From assembly GCF_041248615.1 (NCBI RefSeq), contig NZ_CP158426.1: a DNA stretch of 64,000 nt; one strand, given 5' to 3'. Within the stretch, counting starts at the first letter, position 1, and the number at the start of each line of letters is the position of its first letter. Position numbers and translations under genes: made by a program. The notes beneath the pieces are model-generated. The model did no database searches. It was not told the DNA's origin and was given only the letters and a program-made list of their open reading frames with translations. Shown piece by piece: positions 1,169 through 59,203 of this stretch. Source of the DNA: Escherichia coli (lineage in GTDB: Bacteria; Pseudomonadota; Gammaproteobacteria; Enterobacterales; Enterobacteriaceae).

Positions 1169-1885
1169 ATGCGTCCAGCAGGCCGTAGCAATAATCAGGT
1201 GCGTCCCGTTACCCTGACTCGTAACTATACAAAACATGCAGAAGGCTCGGTGCTGGTCGAATTTGGCGATACCAAAGTATTGTGTACCGCCTCTATTGAA
1301 GAAGGCGTGCCGCGCTTCCTGAAAGGTCAGGGCCAGGGCTGGATCACCGCAGAGTACGGCATGCTGCCACGTTCTACCCACACCCGTAACGCGCGTGAAG
1401 CGGCGAAAGGTAAGCAGGGTGGACGCACCATGGAAATCCAGCGTCTGATCGCCCGTGCTCTTCGTGCGGCAGTAGATTTGAAAGCGCTGGGTGAGTTCAC
1501 TATTACGCTGGACTGCGACGTGCTTCAGGCTGATGGTGGCACGCGTACCGCTTCGATTACGGGTGCCTGCGTGGCGCTGGCAGATGCGCTACAGAAGCTG
1601 GTGGAAAACGGCAAGCTGAAAACCAACCCGATGAAAGGGATGGTAGCCGCAGTTTCTGTCGGGATTGTGAACGGCGAAGCGGTTTGCGATCTGGAATACG
1701 TTGAAGACTCTGCCGCTGAAACGGACATGAACGTGGTGATGACTGAAGACGGGCGCATCATTGAAGTGCAGGGGACGGCAGAAGGCGAGCCGTTCACCCA
1801 TGAAGAGCTTCTCACCTTGTTGGCGCTGGCCCGAGGGGGAATCGAATCCATTGTAGCGACGCAGAAGGCGGCGCTGGCAAACTGA
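1169..1885 (+). CDS. rph: Ribonuclease PH, full length (238 codons)
   Basis: ORF-track protein from internal Met [10 protein letters not shown]...ATQKAALAN; start trimmed from 1145 to ATG at 1169. Confidence 0.95.
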
Positions 1886-1890
1886 TTTTT

Positions 1891-1918
1891 AAGGCGACTG
1901 ATGAGTCGCCTTTTTTTT
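1891..1918 (+). terminator. pyrE attenuator hairpin plus T8 tract
   Basis: aaggcgactgatgagtcgcc followed by tttttttt, 6 nt after rph stop and upstream of pyrE; matches the classical UTP-sensitive pyrE attenuator arrangement. Confidence 0.8.
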
Positions 1919-1950
1919 GTCTGTAGAAAAGTAAGATGAGGAGCGAAGGC

Positions 1951-2592
1951 ATGAAACCATATCAGCGCCAGTTTATTGAATTTGCGCTTAGCAAGCAGGT
2001 GTTAAAGTTTGGCGAGTTTACGCTGAAATCCGGGCGCAAAAGCCCCTATTTCTTCAACGCCGGGCTGTTTAATACCGGGCGCGATCTGGCACTGTTAGGC
2101 CGTTTTTACGCTGAAGCATTGGTGGATTCCGGCATTGAGTTCGATCTGCTGTTTGGCCCTGCTTACAAAGGGATCCCGATTGCCACCACAACTGCCGTGG
2201 CGCTGGCGGAGCATCATGACCTGGACCTGCCGTACTGCTTTAACCGCAAAGAAGCAAAAGACCACGGTGAAGGCGGCAATCTGGTCGGTAGCGCGTTACA
2301 AGGACGCGTAATGCTGGTGGATGATGTGATCACCGCCGGAACGGCGATCCGCGAGTCGATGGAAATTATTCAGGCCAATGGCGCGACGCTTGCTGGCGTA
2401 TTGATTTCGCTCGATCGTCAGGAACGGGGGCGCGGCGAGATTTCGGCAATTCAGGAAGTTGAGCGTGATTACAACTGCAAAGTGATCTCTATCATCACCC
2501 TGAAAGACCTGATTGCTTACCTGGAAGAGAAGCCGGAAATGGCGGAACATCTGGCGGCGGTTAAGGCCTATCGCGAAGAGTTCGGCGTTTAA
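1951..2592 (+). CDS. pyrE: Orotate phosphoribosyltransferase
   Basis: 213-aa protein [11 protein letters not shown]...; PRPP-binding motif [13 protein letters not shown]; start trimmed to ATG at 1951. Confidence 0.95.
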
Positions 2593-9179: not shown

Positions 9180-9530
9180 AGTAAATAGCTGACTTATGGA
9201 TGTGCTGGGGATTCTATGTATTTAGCTGTGGCTTTACCATTACTTTTCCCGTTTTTGACTTAAATAGCAATTTACCCGCCAATTCTTGCTGAACATCTAT
9301 ACTTTTTTTGTATTTTTATGCGATTCATTGATTTCTGCAGTACGTGCAGGAAGGAATCGCAGAGCAACAGTAAAAGAATATAGTTGCTAATGATTTTATT
9401 TGATTGATTTCTTTATTGAAAATCAACAATGTGCTTAAAAATCATTCGGGTCGGATTGCCGCGAAAGAAGTGATACACTAGCGCGTCAATATCAGTGCGG
9501 TATCAGTATTCAGGTAGCTGTTGAGCCTGG

Positions 9531-9542
9531 GGCGGTAGCGTG
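9531..9542 (+). promoter_or_regulatory. ops element GGCGGTAGCGTG (RfaH recruitment site, part of JUMPstart) in the waaQ leader
   Basis: Exact 12-nt ops motif ~50 nt upstream of waaQ start. Confidence 0.8.
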
Positions 9543-9591: not shown

Positions 9592-10650
9592 GTGGATAAG
9601 CCATTTCGAAGAATTTTGCTCATTAAGATGCGTTTTCATGGGGATATGTTATTAACTACTCCCGTCATTAGTTCGCTGAAAAAAAATTACCCTGACGCAA
9701 AAATCGATGTGCTGCTTTATCAGGACACCATCCCGATCCTGTCTGAAAATCCAGAGATTAACGCGCTCTACGGCATAAAAAATAAAAAAGCAAAAGCCTC
9801 AGAAAAAATTGCCAACTTTTTTCATCTCATCAAGGTATTACGTGCCAATAAGTATGACCTTATCGTCAATCTTACCGATCAATGGATGGTTGCTATACTG
9901 GTTCGCTTATTAAATGCCCGTGTGAAAATTTCCCAGGATTATCATCATCGGCAGTCTGCTTTTTGGCGTAATAGTTTCACTCATTTGGTGCCGTTGCAGG
10001 GTGGAAATGTGGTGGAAAGTAACTTATCCGTGCTGTCGCCATTGGGACTTGAATCGTTGGTGAAGCAGACAACCATGAGTTACCCGCCTGCAAGCTGGAA
10101 ACGTATGCGTCGCGAACTTGATCACGCTGGTGTTGGACAAAATTATGTGGTTATCCAACCTACGGCGCGGCAAATCTTCAAATGTTGGGACAACGCCAAG
10201 TTTTCCGCTGTGATTGATGCCTTACATGCTCGTGGTTATGAAGTCGTTCTGACGTCCGGCCCAGATAAAGACGATCTGGTCTGCGTCAATGAAATTGCGC
10301 AGGGATGCCAGACACCACCAGTAACGGCGCTGGCCGGAAAGGTGACCTTCCCGGAACTTGGTGCGTTAATCGATCATGCGCAGCTGTTTATTGGCGTTGA
10401 CTCCGCACCGGCGCATATTGCCGCAGCAGTTAATACGCCGCTGATATCGCTGTTTGGTGCGACAGACCATATTTTCTGGCGTCCTTGGTCAAATAACATG
10501 ATTCAATTCTGGGCGGGAGATTACCGGGAAATGCCAACGCGCGATCAGCGTGACCGAAATGAGATGTATCTTTCGGTTATTCCGGCGGCAGATGTCATTG
10601 CTGCTGTCGATAAATTACTGCCCTCCTCCACGACAGGTACGTCGTTATGA
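9592..10650 (+). CDS. waaQ: LPS heptosyltransferase III (GT9)
   Basis: Heptosyltransferase N-terminus RRILLIKMRFHGDMLLTTP; GTG at 9592 has aagag SD upstream; alternative TTG start at 9616 would give 344 aa. Confidence 0.85.
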   Translation: MDKPFRRILLIKMRFHGDMLLTTPVISSLKKNYPDAKIDVLLYQDTIPILSENPEINALYGIKNKKAKASEKIANFFHLIKVLRANKYDLIVNLTDQWMVAILVRLLNARVKISQDYHHRQSAFWRNSFTHLVPLQGGNVVESNLSVLSPLGLESLVKQTTMSYPPASWKRMRRELDHAGVGQNYVVIQPTARQIFKCWDNAKFSAVIDALHARGYEVVLTSGPDKDDLVCVNEIAQGCQTPPVTALAGKVTFPELGALIDHAQLFIGVDSAPAHIAAAVNTPLISLFGATDHIFWRPWSNNMIQFWAGDYREMPTRDQRDRNEMYLSVIPAADVIAAVDKLLPSSTTGTSL

Positions 10651-51038: not shown

Positions 51039-53124
51039 TTAATATTTCATTCTTGCTGGCAAGCCCAACTCTTTACGAAATGGGTTTTCATATTTATCAA
51101 CATTAGCCATCGAGTCAGTTCCATCGTCTTTCATTCCCTTTGCATGCCCCATTTCATGCGCAAGAACCACACTCAACAGAGTGGGTTTCATGGCACATGC
51201 TTTGTTTTTTCCTTGATATACACATGAGCTATGGTCGTTATCAATATCAATGTAAAAACTATATTCAGTATCATCGTAGCATGTTTGGTTTATGCCTTTT
51301 CTTAATCCTCTAAATATATATTCATGCTCTGATGACTCTAATTCTTCTGTTATTTTATGTCCAAACTTTGTTTCTGCTACAGCTTTATATGCTTCTTTTA
51401 AAGTTTTTTGTGTACTTTCATCTCCCTGAAAAGACACTTTTAACCCTAATGGATCGAAACCAGATACCGGATTCAACGGATACTGATAAAAATTCCATCC
51501 CCCCTTAAGCCCAATCGGATCCTGAGTGATATACCGCCCCTGCAGCGGGTCATAATAGCGGTGGCGGTTGTAATAGAGGCCGGACTCCTCATCATACTGC
51601 TGACCCGGCAGGCGGATGAGCTGCTGCAGCTGGTGCGGGTTCTCTTCATTCAGCAGGTTGCCCCATTCATCGTATTCTGCGCACCATTCTGTTGCCCCTT
51701 CCGTGCTGACAAGCGCCAGCGGCAGGCCGCGATGGTCGCAGTGGTACAGGTGGATTTTTCGCGCCGGCGTGTACACCGGGTCCATCTGGTTTTGTATCTG
51801 CTCCACCGTCAGGCCGCACGATGCCAGCCAGCGGCGGCTTTCCTCACTCACCCGGTCAGCCAGGATTTCACTTTCCAGCCGGTCGAGCATCTGCACCAGC
51901 ACCGGCGGGAACACCACACTGCCACCGTCTTCACCGCCGGACTGCTGAAGCGCATCCGCCAGGCTGCGGCGCTGCGTTTTCGCCAGCTCACCGGTGGCAG
52001 TTTCAACTCTGATGAGTGGCGTGAAGCTCCCCGGCTGATAAACCGTCTGGATGCGGGTTCTGTCGTTCTGTATTGTGGTCAGCCGGTCGCCGTCCCAGCC
52101 GTACCAGGTCACTTCCGGTTTCCGTGACAGCGACATCCAGCCCGTCAGGTCCCGTTCACGCCGCCACACCCGTTTTGCCACCCTGCGGCCCAGCGGGTCG
52201 TAAAGATAGCGACTTTCGACCAGCGGCTCTGCATATTGTGTCCGCGTGTAGTGCACCAGCCGGTGCCGGCTGTCGTAATGGTACCGGTGAGTCCGCTCAT
52301 CATCCGTGCGGATAACCCCTTCCGGGATGAGGTCGGTTTTCTCCGTCAGCCTGCCGTGACGGTCATACCGGTAAAGATAGTGCGCGTCACGGGCGATACG
52401 GTTATCCGGCCACATGCTGAGGGTGCTGTCCGGGTGCAGCTCCGGGTCGGGCAGGCGGTTACCTGCCGGGTCCGTGGCATACGGGATGCGGATATCCAGA
52501 TTCGCTGCGGTGGTGTGGACGCCGGTCAGCCTGCCGGTGTCGCTGTAGCTGTAACTCCGGGTCTGGCGCGGGCTGCTGATGCGGATGAGTTCGCCGTTGT
52601 CGTTCCAGGTGTAATCGCGGTCATACTGCAGGCTGTTCAGGTGCTGGCTCTGTAACTGCCCGGCAGAGGTGTAAGCGGTGGTGAGTTCATAACGGCCGAA
52701 GCTGCGCAGCGTTTCCCGGTGCAGGCGGTCGCGGGTGTACTCCACCAGCGGTGTGTCGCCGAGTTTCATGCCTGACAGCCAGCCGCTGCCGTAGGTCAGC
52801 CATTCCACGGCGGGCAGGCTGTCCGGTATACAGCGGTTCGCCAGTCCCTGCGCGTTGTACGCATGTCTGGTTTCATGCTGCCAGAGCAGTGCTTCCGTCT
52901 GCGGGTGATGCACCGTCTGGCGCTCACCGGTCAGGCGGCCTTTCTCATCATACCCGTAATGCACCGTCACCCGGTGGCCTTCGCTGAGATGGCTGATTTG
53001 TGTCAGCCAGCCGCGTTCGTCGTACCGCCACTGTTCTGCGGTTTCACCATTCACCGTTCGCTGTGTGATGCGGTCTGCTTCGTCATAGTGCCAGTGGGTG
53101 ACCAGCCCCTCATCCTCGCTGCGG
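51039..53124 (-). pseudogene. rhsA: rhs C-terminal fragment: YD-repeat core, DPxGL boundary, HExxH-containing C-terminal toxin domain
   Basis: YD repeats; ...[11 protein letters not shown]...[17 protein letters not shown]...; the ORF-track start [14 protein letters not shown] is encoded by the IS21 end. Confidence 0.85.
53119..53124. repeat. Target-site duplication CTGCGG (IS21-family insertion), copy 1
   Basis: Identical hexamer at 55706-55711 immediately outside the opposite IS end. Confidence 0.6.
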
Positions 53125-53209
53125 TGCGTATTACCGTGAAGGAGATCGGTGAGTAACATCGATGGAGATCGGTTCGTGTCACTTTCACAGAACCGTTTTT
53201 AAATTACCT

Positions 53210-53959
53210 TCACTGATCTCCTTCGGTCAACGGAGATTGTATTTTCCGCATTGATTCTCCTTTAAGTTCGATCTTGATACTGCCATGAACCAGTCGATCT
53301 AGGATGGCATCCGCATGTGTGGAGTCTCCGATCATTTTGTACCAGTTTTCCACCGGCAACTGGCTCACTACGATGATTGAGCCTCGTTGGTACATCAGAT
53401 CCACTATTTCCAGCAGGTCGCTACGCTGTTCTGATGAGAGAGGTTCCAGCCCCCAGTCATCCAGAAGCAGCAGATCGCTATTATTCAGCCTGGTCAAAAG
53501 TTTGCTGTATCTTCCATCAGCATGCCCCTGATAGCACTGTTCCATCAGCGCTTTAAGGCGATAATAGTAGACCTTGTATCCCTGTCGGCAGGCATTATGA
53601 CCAAGTGCACATGCCAGGAACGTTTTACCGCTGCCGGTGGCCCCGGTCAGTAAAATATTTTGTTTCAGGGTTAACCAGTTTCCCTGACTGAGTGAACGGA
53701 TGAGGGCCCTGTCCAGCCCTCTATTGTTACGATAATCCAGCTTTGATAACTCAGCATTAAGTCTGAACCGTGCATGTTTGATCAGACGCTCTGCCTTCCT
53801 GTTTTCACGGCAGGTTAGTTCTTCTGCTGTCAGTAATGACAGGCGTTCTTCGAAGCCCAGCTCCTGGTATGTGCCCGGCTGAGCAAGTTGCTTTTTAAGC
53901 GCATCACGGAAGCCGGTGAGTTTAAGTGCGGTCAGTTGTTCGTAAAGATGATTCATCAT
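53210..53959 (-). CDS. istB: IS21-family helper ATPase IstB
   Basis: 249 aa; Walker A GATGSGKT. Confidence 0.9.
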   Translation of the reverse strand: MMNHLYEQLTALKLTGFRDALKKQLAQPGTYQELGFEERLSLLTAEELTCRENRKAERLIKHARFRLNAELSKLDYRNNRGLDRALIRSLSQGNWLTLKQNILLTGATGSGKTFLACALGHNACRQGYKVYYYRLKALMEQCYQGHADGRYSKLLTRLNNSDLLLLDDWGLEPLSSEQRSDLLEIVDLMYQRGSIIVVSQLPVENWYKMIGDSTHADAILDRLVHGSIKIELKGESMRKIQSPLTEGDQ

Positions 53960-53970
53960 TGGATCCCGTA

Positions 53971-55512
53971 TCAGTGGTAATACTCACTGCCGCGTACGTT
54001 TTCGTGTTCCATCGTGGATAACAGATCTGGTTTTGGATCCTGAACAGGTTGTTTATCCAGACCTTTTTCCAGGATCGATTTAATACCTGACAGACGCCAT
54101 ACCTTTGTTTTCAGAGCTCTTGCACATGCTGCATTAAGTCTGGCTTTACTGTATTTTTTATGAAGGTTCAGGAGTCCAAGGCAGAAGCGATAGCTTTGTT
54201 CCGGATGTGGACGAGAGTTCAGTATATGAAGCACATAACTATGAGTTTCACTGCCTATGTGCCCCGCCCATTCCAGAAGACGCTCTGGCGTCCAGGTGGC
54301 ATGCTGTCGATGAGCTTCAGGCATGTGCTCGTTGCGGGTACTGTAGCCATAAGTACGCTTGCGCGGGTGCACAGCAACCTCCTGCCCCTGATTGAAGAGT
54401 CTTACCAGTTCTCCGGAGATCCATGCTTCCAGTTGCTGGCCTAACAGCGAACATGGAACCGAGTAGTAATGTTTGTCGATTTCCACGTGGTAATCGGCAT
54501 GAACTCTGACTTTCTTCACCAGGGTGTAACTGTAACTGGCTTCAGGAAGAGGCTTCAGTGCGGGTTTATCAAGCTGGATGAAGAGTTCTGCACGTGAATA
54601 ACCCAACTTCTGCATTATTTTGTTATTCAGTCTTTCCAGCAACTCCCGAATGCGCTGATTAAGCGATGCAAGGCTGTAGAAGATCTCATGCCTGATTCGG
54701 GCCATGATCCAGCGTTCAACAACCTGAACGCCAACTTCAGCTTTGGCTTTATCTTTCGGTTTACGTGGCCGCGCAGGCAAAACTGCGACATTATAATGCT
54801 CAAGCATCTGCTGGTAGGTAGGGTTAACGTCAGGATCATACTTACATGCCCTGGATGTGGCGCTTTTCAGATTGTCCGGAACAACAAGTTCAGGAACGCC
54901 ACCCAACCACTGGAAGCAGCGAACATGACTCATCACCCAGTCTTCAAGCTGCTGAGACCAGGTGGCCTCTGCCCATGTGTAACTTGATGCCCCGAGAACA
55001 GCTACGATGACCTGAGCAGTTCTTATTTCTCCGGTCTCAGGGTCGGTAACGCCAACGGTAGGTCCACAGTAATCAACGAAAAGTTTTTCGCCAGCTTTAT
55101 GTACCTGACGCATTGATGGTGAAGTGGTTTTGAGCCATTCACGGTACATCCGGCAGTAATGGTTATAGCTGTAAAAACCGCCTGGATTACGCTCACAGTA
55201 TTCTTCCCAGAGTAGCTGCAGCGTCACGCATTTATTACGCAGTTCCCGGTGTACTGTAGCCCAGTCAGGCAGAGAGTGCTTCTTCATCTTAACCTGGGTC
55301 TGAAGGAACGCATGTTTTAGTTTTGTATCATCCCATCCTGTAGGTAAGGGCCACTGCTTTATGCCAAGTTGAGCCGCCCGATTAGCATATCTGGATACAA
55401 CGGAAGGGGAGATTGCAAGACTACGACCAATTTGTCGATGGCTGAGTCCAACACCGTATTTAAGCCTAAGAATTTCTTTAAGTTTTCTCATAGAAATTGG
55501 AACTGTTGGCAT
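53971..55512 (-). CDS. istA: IS21-family transposase IstA
   Basis: 513 aa; N-terminal HTH and DDE integrase core. Confidence 0.9.
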   Translation of the reverse strand: MPTVPISMRKLKEILRLKYGVGLSHRQIGRSLAISPSVVSRYANRAAQLGIKQWPLPTGWDDTKLKHAFLQTQVKMKKHSLPDWATVHRELRNKCVTLQLLWEEYCERNPGGFYSYNHYCRMYREWLKTTSPSMRQVHKAGEKLFVDYCGPTVGVTDPETGEIRTAQVIVAVLGASSYTWAEATWSQQLEDWVMSHVRCFQWLGGVPELVVPDNLKSATSRACKYDPDVNPTYQQMLEHYNVAVLPARPRKPKDKAKAEVGVQVVERWIMARIRHEIFYSLASLNQRIRELLERLNNKIMQKLGYSRAELFIQLDKPALKPLPEASYSYTLVKKVRVHADYHVEIDKHYYSVPCSLLGQQLEAWISGELVRLFNQGQEVAVHPRKRTYGYSTRNEHMPEAHRQHATWTPERLLEWAGHIGSETHSYVLHILNSRPHPEQSYRFCLGLLNLHKKYSKARLNAACARALKTKVWRLSGIKSILEKGLDKQPVQDPKPDLLSTMEHENVRGSEYYH

Positions 55513-55705
55513 AGGTATCCTTTACCGGAATGGCAAAAGATACAGATCAACACACCTGTGAAGTTCCAATAACATTGATGGAGATCACTGAATAACAAAA
55601 TGAGTCAAAAGTGATCTCCATCGATGTTATTCAGCGATCTGTTCAAATGTTATTACCCGATCTCGATGGAAGTTATTGAGTGATCTCCTTTCATGAAAAT
55701 ACGCA

Positions 55706-55711
55706 CTGCGG
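55706..55711. repeat. Target-site duplication CTGCGG, copy 2
   Basis: See copy 1. Confidence 0.6.
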
Positions 55712-56723
55712 ATAAGTTTACCGGTCAGGTCGTGGTGATAACGCTGTGTGCGGCCGTCAAAGCCGGTTTCCTGTATCAGCCGGTCGAGTACATCGTAACG
55801 GAAGGTGGTGTGGCTGCCGTTTTCACTGGTCAGGCGGATGACCCGTCCGGCAGCATCGTATTCCATACTGCGCGTCAGACCGCCCTGTGTGGTACGGATG
55901 GCCTTTCCCCACGCATCGTACTGTGTCCCGTTTCTGCTGCCGTCCGGGGCAATGACGGCGGTCAGGTCACCGGCGGCGTTGTATTCATACCGCGTTTCAT
56001 GGCCCTGCGTGTCTTTCACCGCAATTAACTGTCCACGGCTGTCGTATGCGCGGTACTGACTCAGCCCTTCCTCGCGGTGCACCGCCGTCACCTGACCAAA
56101 ACGGTCATGGTCATAACGGGTTACATAACCGGAACAGTCAGTGACGGTCAGCAACTGACCGTAACGGCTCCATGTCATGGTTTTCCGGCTGCCGGTGGCA
56201 TCTTCCGTTGCGCAGGGTAAGTCACTGTGTGGATTATCATAACGGTAGCGGGTGATATCGCCGTTGTGTGCGGTTTCCTGAATCAGACGGCCGGATTCAT
56301 CATATTCCCGGCGCAATTCCAGCCCGTCAGGCCCGGTGGCTGACGTTAACTGGCTGTGGTGGTTATAGTAAAATGCCGATGCCCTGCCATCCGGTGTGGT
56401 GATGCGCGTGATGAGTCCCGTCACCACATCCGGGCTGTACTCAGTCGTCCGGCCTGCGGCATCCGTCTGTGCCTTAAGCCTGCCCACCGCGTCAAACTGA
56501 CTCTGCGTGACGCTGCCGTCCGCGTGTTCCTTTTTCACCACCCGCTTCAGCCCGCCTTCGCCCTGCGTGTGCAGCACTTCACGGCGGTCCAGGCTGTCGG
56601 TGATGGTGATGTGGTCTTTCTCATACTGATACGTGTAGCTTAAGCCTGCCGGGTTTAGCTGTTCTGTCACCCGCCCGTCACTGTCGTAACGGTAACGGAT
56701 TTCCGGCCGGCCCGTGTGACGGT
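55706..56723 (-). pseudogene. rhsA: rhs middle fragment (YD-repeat region) between the two IS elements
   Basis: YD-repeat protein segment ...RYDHDRFGQVTAV...YHHDLTGKLIRS; reading frame runs into the IS ends on both sides. Confidence 0.85.
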
Positions 56724-57478
<755 letters not shown>

Positions 57479-57582
57479 ATCAGCATACTTGTCCTTAGCC
57501 TTCTGCAGTGACAGCTGGTAGTACAGCGTGCTTCTGGCCAGCCCTGCAGCCTTTAACAGGTCAGACTGGCAGTGTCCGCACC

Positions 57583-58113
57583 TCAGGCTCCGGATGACTT
57601 TCGTTTTTTCTCCAGCTCCTGGCGCTTTTTTTCCAGGAGATGCTCCTGCATGGCTTTCAGATATGCATTTTCTGCGCGAAGATAACGCAGCTCATTCTTC
57701 ATCTCTTCCGGCGTCATGTTTGCCTCGTTTTCATGGGTATCATCAGAACGGGTCATGCTTTTCTCCTTCCTGCGCCTGATAAAGGCCTCATTACCAGATT
57801 TGCGGTAGCCTTTTATCCAGTTTTTAACCGTGTTGTGGCTGGGAATGTTAAACCGGGCAGCTACCCGGGGTAGAGACTCAGAATGCCCGAGAGCATAAAG
57901 AACCACGCAAAGTTTATCTTCAGGAGAATAGCTACGCTTGTGTCTGCAATCCAGTGCCCGAGGACCGTGAAGAAGAAAAAGATTAATCCAGTGTGAGAGG
58001 CTGGTGTGAGAAAGTTGAAAGAGTTTTGCCGTAGAAATGATGCCTGTATGACCAGCCAGGTAATGATTTACAGCGGCAAGTTTTACTTCAAATGAATGTT
58101 TCATAAACTGCAC
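57583..58113 (-). CDS. IS3-family transposase OrfA (HTH)
   Basis: 176 aa; N-terminus resembles IS150-group OrfA; leucine-zipper-like C-terminus. Confidence 0.85.
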   Translation of the reverse strand: MQFMKHSFEVKLAAVNHYLAGHTGIISTAKLFQLSHTSLSHWINLFLLHGPRALDCRHKRSYSPEDKLCVVLYALGHSESLPRVAARFNIPSHNTVKNWIKGYRKSGNEAFIRRRKEKSMTRSDDTHENEANMTPEEMKNELRYLRAENAYLKAMQEHLLEKKRQELEKKRKSSGA

Positions 58114-58155
58114 CTTCAGATGTCAGATTATGTCCAACATTTGGGGTGCAGTTCA

Positions 58156-59203
58156 GGTGCGCCACCATCCGGCCCCGGTATTTATCATCGTAAGTAAAGC
58201 TGCGCACCTGTGTATTGCTGCGGTCATACACCGCCGCCAGTTCGCCGCGTGGCGTCCAGCCATAGCGCACCAGCGGCGCGGCAGGTAAATTCTCCGGGTA
58301 TTCCGGGTCGTGCGTCAGCCACACGGCAGACAGACGGATGCCGTTGTCCCGGCCATATTCGGTGTAACCCGGCAGGGTATCAGGAAAAACGGACGGTTCC
58401 ATCCCGCCGGAAATGGCCTGCTGCCGGGCTTCTTCTGCCCGCTGCGCCTGCGTGGTCAGTACCAGCCGGAAGTGACGCCCGGCACCATCCGTCACGCCGG
58501 TGATTTCGCCGCTGAATTCGCCGCCAGCCTCACGGTGGAACGTCTGTGTGCGCCCGAAGCGGTCCACCAGCCCGGTCAGTACCCGGTACGGCGGCAGCGG
58601 CGCAGGCAGCACCTCATCCGCCTCCGGCACCCGCTCACACCAGCCGAGTACCCACCACGGCCCCTGCGGACTGTTCGTCGCCAGATAACGATGCGGACTC
58701 AGGCGAAGCTCTTCCGGCAGCGCCTGCCAGAGTGCGGCCAGCCGGTGACCTTCATCCAGTTTCGCCACGCCGCCGCGCACCAGCCAGAGTGACTCGCTGC
58801 GGCTGTAACCGTCCTCACCGGGAAACAGGTGCTCAAAATACAGGCTTCTGCCGCCGTTATCACTGAGTATCAGTGTGTTATCGCGCAGCTGTAAGCGGAT
58901 ATCCGCAGGCATTTTCCAGCCGGGGCCGAGGCTCCCCACCGGCGCGGGCGTTTTTGTCCGGTAACTGCTGTAGGTGCGGGAGAGGATGAACGGCAGCGGG
59001 CCGGGCAGGGCAAGGTCGGTTTCGCCGGGAAGGACCTTCGCGCCGAGCAGCGGATTGACCGGATGGCCGGACGTCACCCCGCCGGGGCACACCGAACAGG
59101 CCACGCCGGTGGGGGCACCGATGCGCACCCCGGCTGAACCCTGGACAATGCTACCGCCATACTGCGTCATGTCGCCCTGACGCGCCGCCGGTTTTCCGCT
59201 CAT
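58156..59203 (-). pseudogene. rhsA: rhs N-terminal fragment (PAAR-like N-terminal domain and first YD repeats)
   Basis: MSGKPAARQGDMTQYGGSIVQGSAGVRIGAPTGVACSVCPGG...; the frame reads into the IS3 end. Confidence 0.85.

Follow-up and report, generated by a model that had tools for sequence, protein, structure and literature searches.

The rph-pyrE junction of an Escherichia coli chromosome: a full-length rph allele and its intercistronic pyrE attenuator

Genes and attenuator at the rph-pyrE junction

The stretch of DNA analysed here (64 kb, referred to as the window) is an exact match to positions 160001-224000 of the E. coli NRZ14408 chromosome (NZ_LT599825.1). rph and pyrE are adjacent and co-oriented, rph lying 5', and a G+C-rich hairpin and a U tract separate them; the flanking genes are yicC and slmA, the neighbours known from E. 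coli (Table 1). Both genes are already present in the RefSeq annotation of NZ_LT599825.1 at exactly these coordinates.

Table 1. Features of the rph-pyrE junction and their positions in the window
Feature	Position	Strand	Basis
rph, full-length RNase PH	1169..1885	+	ORF/translation, Pfam, 1R6L alignment, RefSeq WP_001247093.1
10-bp direct repeat GCAGAAGGCG, two copies	1778..1787 and 1861-1870	+	sequence positions
G5 run, site of the K-12 rph-1 single-G loss; intact	1835..1839	+	MG1655 alignment
Out-of-frame TAG, the rph-1 stop; not read as a stop here	1854..1856	+	in-silico deletion
rph TGA stop codon	1883..1885	+	sequence
U5 spacer, stop codon to hairpin	1886..1890	+	sequence
pyrE attenuator hairpin, 9-bp stem AAGGCGACU/AGUCGCCUU, loop GAUG	1891..1912	+	RNA fold, terminator scan
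Attenuator T8 tract, first two T paired in the stem	1911..1918	+	sequence, scan
GAGGAG, Shine-Dalgarno-like, 7 nt before the pyrE ATG	1938..1943	+	sequence; putative function
pyrE, orotate phosphoribosyltransferase, 213 aa	1951..2592	+	Pfam, RefSeq WP_000806177.1

The rph open reading frame begins with ATG at 1169 and runs for 238 codons to its TGA, with the C-terminus ATQKAALAN, exactly as an earlier note made from the DNA letters had read it. The 238-aa protein matches the Pfam families RNase_PH (1.1e-30, 107.1 bits against a curated cut-off of 25.5) and RNase_PH_C (7.5e-16, 58.3 bits against a curated cut-off of 20.8), and RefSeq places the protein WP_001247093.1 at the same coordinates as the window rph product. 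Residues 3-238 of the solved Pseudomonas RNase PH 1R6L (239 residues) pair with residues 2-237 of the window protein (E 3.7e-104), therefore the 238 aa constitute a complete RNase PH. Membership of the RNase PH family is confirmed, and phosphorolytic 3' exoribonuclease activity is predicted from the family. Minus-strand open reading frames of 108, 70 and 46 aa within rph are unlikely to be genes; they lie inside a well-supported gene and RefSeq annotates no gene there.

The attenuator hairpin and T8 tract that the earlier note had described after rph were both found, and the hairpin has a predicted folding energy of -14.7 kcal/mol. The same note had put the rph stop 6 nt before the hairpin. 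The closeness was confirmed but the figure is approximate: the stem's first paired base lies 5 nt from the TGA, and its G+C core 7 nt. The spacer just 5' of the hairpin, UUUUU, is a candidate UTP-sensitive slowing site for the polymerase. pyrE starts 33 nt beyond the hairpin and T8 tract, and its product matches Pfam Pribosyltran (1.8e-09, 37.5 bits, cut-off 26.3).

The attenuator hairpin was predicted when the RNA of 1860-1955 (96 nt) was folded, but the overall stability of this segment was unremarkable compared with shuffles (z = -1.27), and a scan of 1.7 kb for terminator-like patterns returned 4 sites versus 2.1 expected. By itself the hairpin and T-tract pattern is statistically unremarkable, and thermodynamics alone is no evidence for an attenuator. 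Both results would also suit a different reading, in which the hairpin and T8 form a constitutive terminator of a monocistronic rph, pyrE has its own promoter and the position of the rph stop is irrelevant; hairpins followed by T tracts are common past genes. Such a pyrE promoter found no support in a consensus promoter scan of 1000-2700, which returned no promoter-like site between rph and pyrE (1886-1950). The scan returned no rph promoter either; a perfect TATAAT at 1127-1132 lacked a well-spaced -35 element. As the rph promoter was missed by the consensus scan, co-transcription of rph and pyrE rests on the literature and the gene order.

When the whole window was searched with Rfam at gathering thresholds, no family matched over the attenuator and the sole match was a JUMPstart RNA (RF01707, 55.2 bits) at 9504-9542. 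This element lies about 50 nt before the start of rfaQ, the first LPS core gene, which begins at 9592 in the collinear strain CFSAN061763, the position expected for JUMPstart.

Further features were observed elsewhere in the window. The insertion sequences ISEc12 (IS21 family, ~53123-55705) and IS1397 (IS3 family, 56756-58104) split an RHS element at 51039-59203 into pieces; in the related CFSAN061763, ISEc12 occupies a different site, adjoining a YadA-like adhesin gene. The YadA-like trimeric autotransporter adhesin gene of the window (36968-41287) measures 4,320 nt versus 5,466 nt in CFSAN061763, and the length of this gene varies between close relatives. Positions 1-178, on the dinD-yicC side, gave no BLAST match to the CFSAN061763 region at an E-value cut-off of 1e-20, and beyond them the window is collinear with CFSAN061763 at about 99%.

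The rph-1 allele of K-12 and the alleles of other E. coli

The earlier note had called the window allele intact and distinct from rph-1 of K-12. Alignment of window positions 1700-1960 with the MG1655 rph-pyrE junction agreed with this, as its single indel is a GGGGG run of the window (1835-1839) facing GGGG in MG1655, and the single-base deletion of rph-1 is absent from the window. The extra G aside, window and MG1655 are identical across the G run and onwards to the pyrE start codon. MG1655 rph is annotated as a 'truncated RNase PH' whose translation is 228 aa long and ends in ARGESNPL. In-silico removal of one G from the window likewise yielded 228 aa ending in ARGESNPL, with the stop at TAG 1854-1856, 34 nt 5' of the hairpin. 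The C-terminal segment missing from the rph-1 product is present in the window protein. The allele of the window is thus rph+ and not rph-1. The K-12 rph-1 strains (MG1655, W3110, BW25113, J53 and derivatives) share the locus and the attenuator sequence with the window, but they have G4 and an inactive 228-aa protein whose stop codon is 34 nt away from the hairpin, where the window has G5 and a gap of 5 nt.

Upstream of the G run, the first 666 nt of rph contain 17 substitutions relative to K-12, and two residues of the protein differ (A138V and T216I). This is an ordinary level of divergence between strains. Because this strain is not K-12 (17 of 666 nt differ), the contrast with K-12 tells little about the strain itself.

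The consequences of rph-1 are described in passages of several papers. Because of a 1-bp deletion in rph, MG1655 and W3110 have lost RNase PH activity and express pyrE at a reduced level (PMC2784333, PMC6941894, PMC11148124), and growth is restored by mutations that shift the rph stop towards the attenuator, for example an 82-bp deletion (PMC2784333, PMC6941894, PMC11148124, PMC3203608). Translation-coupled, UTP-sensitive attenuation of pyrE in K-12 is likewise described in passages that cite Jensen 1993 and Bonekamp 1984 (PMC2784333, PMC11148124). What the earlier note had said of K-12, a truncating frameshift and low pyrE expression, matches the literature quoted in passages of PMC2784333 and PMC11148124. 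PMC3071312 contains nothing pertinent to the rph-pyrE attenuator. These published genetics, as quoted in the papers above, stand against a constitutive terminator, as rph-1 lowers pyrE and the 82-bp deletion restores growth.

The 82-bp rph-pyrE deletion is recurrent in MG1655 and is bounded by a 10-bp repeat whose copies lie 82 bp apart, according to passages of PMC2784333 and PMC3203608. The copies of GCAGAAGGCG are spaced 83 bp apart in the window and 82 bp apart in MG1655, which carries the 1-bp deletion. From the equal length and spacing, we infer that GCAGAAGGCG is the published deletion-bounding repeat.

In a comparison covering 5,424 complete genomes of E. coli, the 95-nt junction (1827-1921) was unchanged in 4,336 (~80%). 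Only 200 genomes were at least 99% identical to the window over a 901-nt region, therefore the junction is better conserved than the surrounding gene. The G4 allele was found as an exact match in 168 of the 5,424 genomes, 167 of which have the K-12 haplotype as called from K-12-specific substitutions just upstream of the junction; MG1655, W3110, BW25113, J53 and their laboratory derivatives are among the G4 genomes listed. The lone exception seen was the stool isolate 2015C-3101, whose annotation records a frameshift in rph. The intact allele is the E. coli norm, and the K-12 allele is a peculiarity of a laboratory lineage.

The G5-to-G4 frameshift of 2015C-3101 was also observed outside E. 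coli, in Kluyvera genomosp. 3 YDC799 (CP022114.1); in both, as in K-12 rph-1, the product ends in ARGESNPL and translation would stop 34 nt short of the hairpin. YDC799 and 2015C-3101 are of unrelated backgrounds, and their G4 runs reflect either a recurrent mutation hotspot or homopolymer assembly errors.

Homopolymers of G and T are error-prone, and junction length variants exist among deposited genomes: 2015C-3101 has G4, N427 has T9, and 485 genomes lack a C of the hairpin arm. The intact frame of the window could accordingly mislead, either through an assembly error in the G5 run or through some other failure of rph translation, and the strain would then be rph-1-like. An assembly error in G5 was rejected because 4,336 independent complete genomes share the same 95-nt junction. 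In addition, the protein is the widespread RefSeq WP_001247093.1, its alignment with solved RNase PH structures extends to their final residues, and the start codon and the whole open reading frame are intact. We regard a misleading frame as extremely improbable.

Length variants of the attenuator itself were also seen. One lacks a single C of the 3' arm (GTCGC-T8 versus GTCGCC-T8, ~1909-1910) and was found as an exact match in 485 of the 5,424 genomes, including strains 5270 and SW071619. Its hairpin is predicted to be weaker (-12.0 versus -14.7 kcal/mol) and has fewer free U past the stem, and the variant might raise basal read-through into pyrE. Strain N427 has a T9 tract in place of T8 (equivalent to window 1911-1918). 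Such natural length variants (missing C, T9) may set differing pyrE levels. Insertion sequences were observed next to the attenuator in two strains: in EC556, IS200C lies directly past the T tract and 5' of the pyrE ribosome-binding site (~1917-1921), and in PEC399, ISApl1 likewise follows the T tract directly, before the pyrE ribosome-binding site, in a missing-C variant.

The rph-pyrE spacer in other gammaproteobacteria

A species-representative genome collection was scanned with a DNA pattern for the start of pyrE, which located at least 120 loci; the listed matches include Enterobacterales, Vibrionales and Aeromonadales. At each locus the rph stop was located and the sequence was searched for a T tract preceded by a perfect stem of 5 bp or more, with shuffled spacers as a control. 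This perfect-stem scan was chosen over an alignment covariation test because the lengths of stem and loop vary by clade. Among the matches listed, 104 species had a usable spacer, and a hairpin with a T tract occurred 0-11 nt past the rph stop in 93 of the 104, most commonly at a stop-to-stem distance of 4-6 nt. Shuffled spacers yielded a comparable site about 1% of the time. Conservation in these 93 of 104 listed species and in the 4,336 of 5,424 E. coli junctions is the reason for taking the attenuator as real.

In these listed species the spacer between rph and pyrE varies in length from 60 to 390 nt, and the stem sequence is clade-dependent, with 53 distinct 5' arms among the matches listed. 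The arm is GGCGAC in Enterobacterales; Vibrio has AUAGCUCC, Aeromonas ACGCGGC and Photobacterium AGCGGUUCC. T makes up 79% of the bases that separate stop and stem, versus 26% of the remaining intergenic DNA (93 species among the matches listed). The window, with 5 nt, 9 bp and T8, lies at the mode of the listed matches. The spacing between stop and hairpin and the T-rich spacer are what a ribosome-shielding, UTP-sensitive attenuator would predict; they support such a mechanism without proving it, because intrinsic terminators often lie near stop codons anyway. A constitutive terminator is harder to reconcile with a narrow stop-hairpin gap and a U-rich spacer that are kept in three orders while the remaining spacer varies freely. 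Taken with the published K-12 genetics and the promoter scan, this makes a constitutive terminator with an independently transcribed pyrE very unlikely in our judgment. The locus is very probably a wild-type E. coli rph-pyrE bicistronic operon with an intercistronic, translation-coupled attenuator.

Departures from the common arrangement were observed in some lineages. In Aliidiomarina, Zobellella, Tolumonas, Aliagarivorans and Agarivorans (9 listed loci), the spacers are 0-51 nt long and contain no terminator-like hairpin, and the attenuator appears to be absent or lost in these genera. In an Aeromonas MAG and Aeromonas popoffii, about 270 nt of additional sequence sets the usual hairpin (ACGCGGC...GCCGCGU) apart from the rph stop, whereas in the other Aeromonas among the matches listed the rph stop adjoins the hairpin.

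A stop codon, a U-rich spacer of 4-7 nt, a hairpin and a U tract are kept across three orders while the hairpin sequence is replaced. This pattern may reflect an ancient ribosome-coupled attenuation that was lost in lineages with very short spacers and that E. coli length variants may tune for pyrE expression, a proposal for which we see the chances as evenly balanced.

A model for pyrE attenuation and its meaning

Going by the published work on K-12, the operon would function as follows. At the 3' end of rph, the RNA polymerase would meet an intrinsic terminator. A ribosome close behind, at the TGA codon, would place its footprint over the 5' arm of the hairpin (1891-1899). The footprint of a ribosome extends about 12-15 nt past the A-site codon, and with this general figure the 5-nt gap puts the stop near enough for a terminating ribosome to mask the 5' arm. 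With the hairpin blocked by the ribosome, transcription would proceed into pyrE. When UTP is plentiful, the polymerase would outrun the ribosome, the hairpin would form and transcription would end. When UTP is low, the polymerase would slow at U-rich stretches such as the U5 spacer, the ribosome would catch up and pyrE would be made. In rph-1, the ribosome would come off the mRNA at a point 34 nt short of the hairpin, which would then always form, leaving pyrE under-expressed and RNase PH inactive. The window allele would escape this defect.

An E. coli rph (orfE)-pyrE operon with a UTP-modulated intercistronic attenuator was reportedly characterised by Poulsen et al. 1984, Bonekamp et al. 1984 and Jensen 1993. 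The window has the same genes in the same order as this rph+ system, with the same 238-aa RNase PH, and its regulatory region shows no differences. Attenuation should therefore be normal in this strain, as the earlier note had expected, given its identity with the characterised system. The logic is shared with the pyrBI leader attenuator of E. coli, in which the polymerase is slowed in a UTP-sensitive manner and a closely following ribosome blocks the terminator hairpin. The two differ in what the ribosome translates, as the pyrBI ribosome reads a short dedicated leader peptide and the rph-pyrE ribosome reads the last codons of rph, a gene for a full-size enzyme.

The feature described here is the textbook wild-type state, already known and annotated in RefSeq, and the window allele itself is nothing new. 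With normal rph+ and pyrE+, the strain should escape the partial pyrimidine starvation and the loss of RNase PH of strains derived from MG1655 and W3110. At rph-pyrE, K-12 is the exception, and an intact rph is the default to be used when genomes are annotated or compared. The survey across species adds modest support to the ribosome-shielding model.
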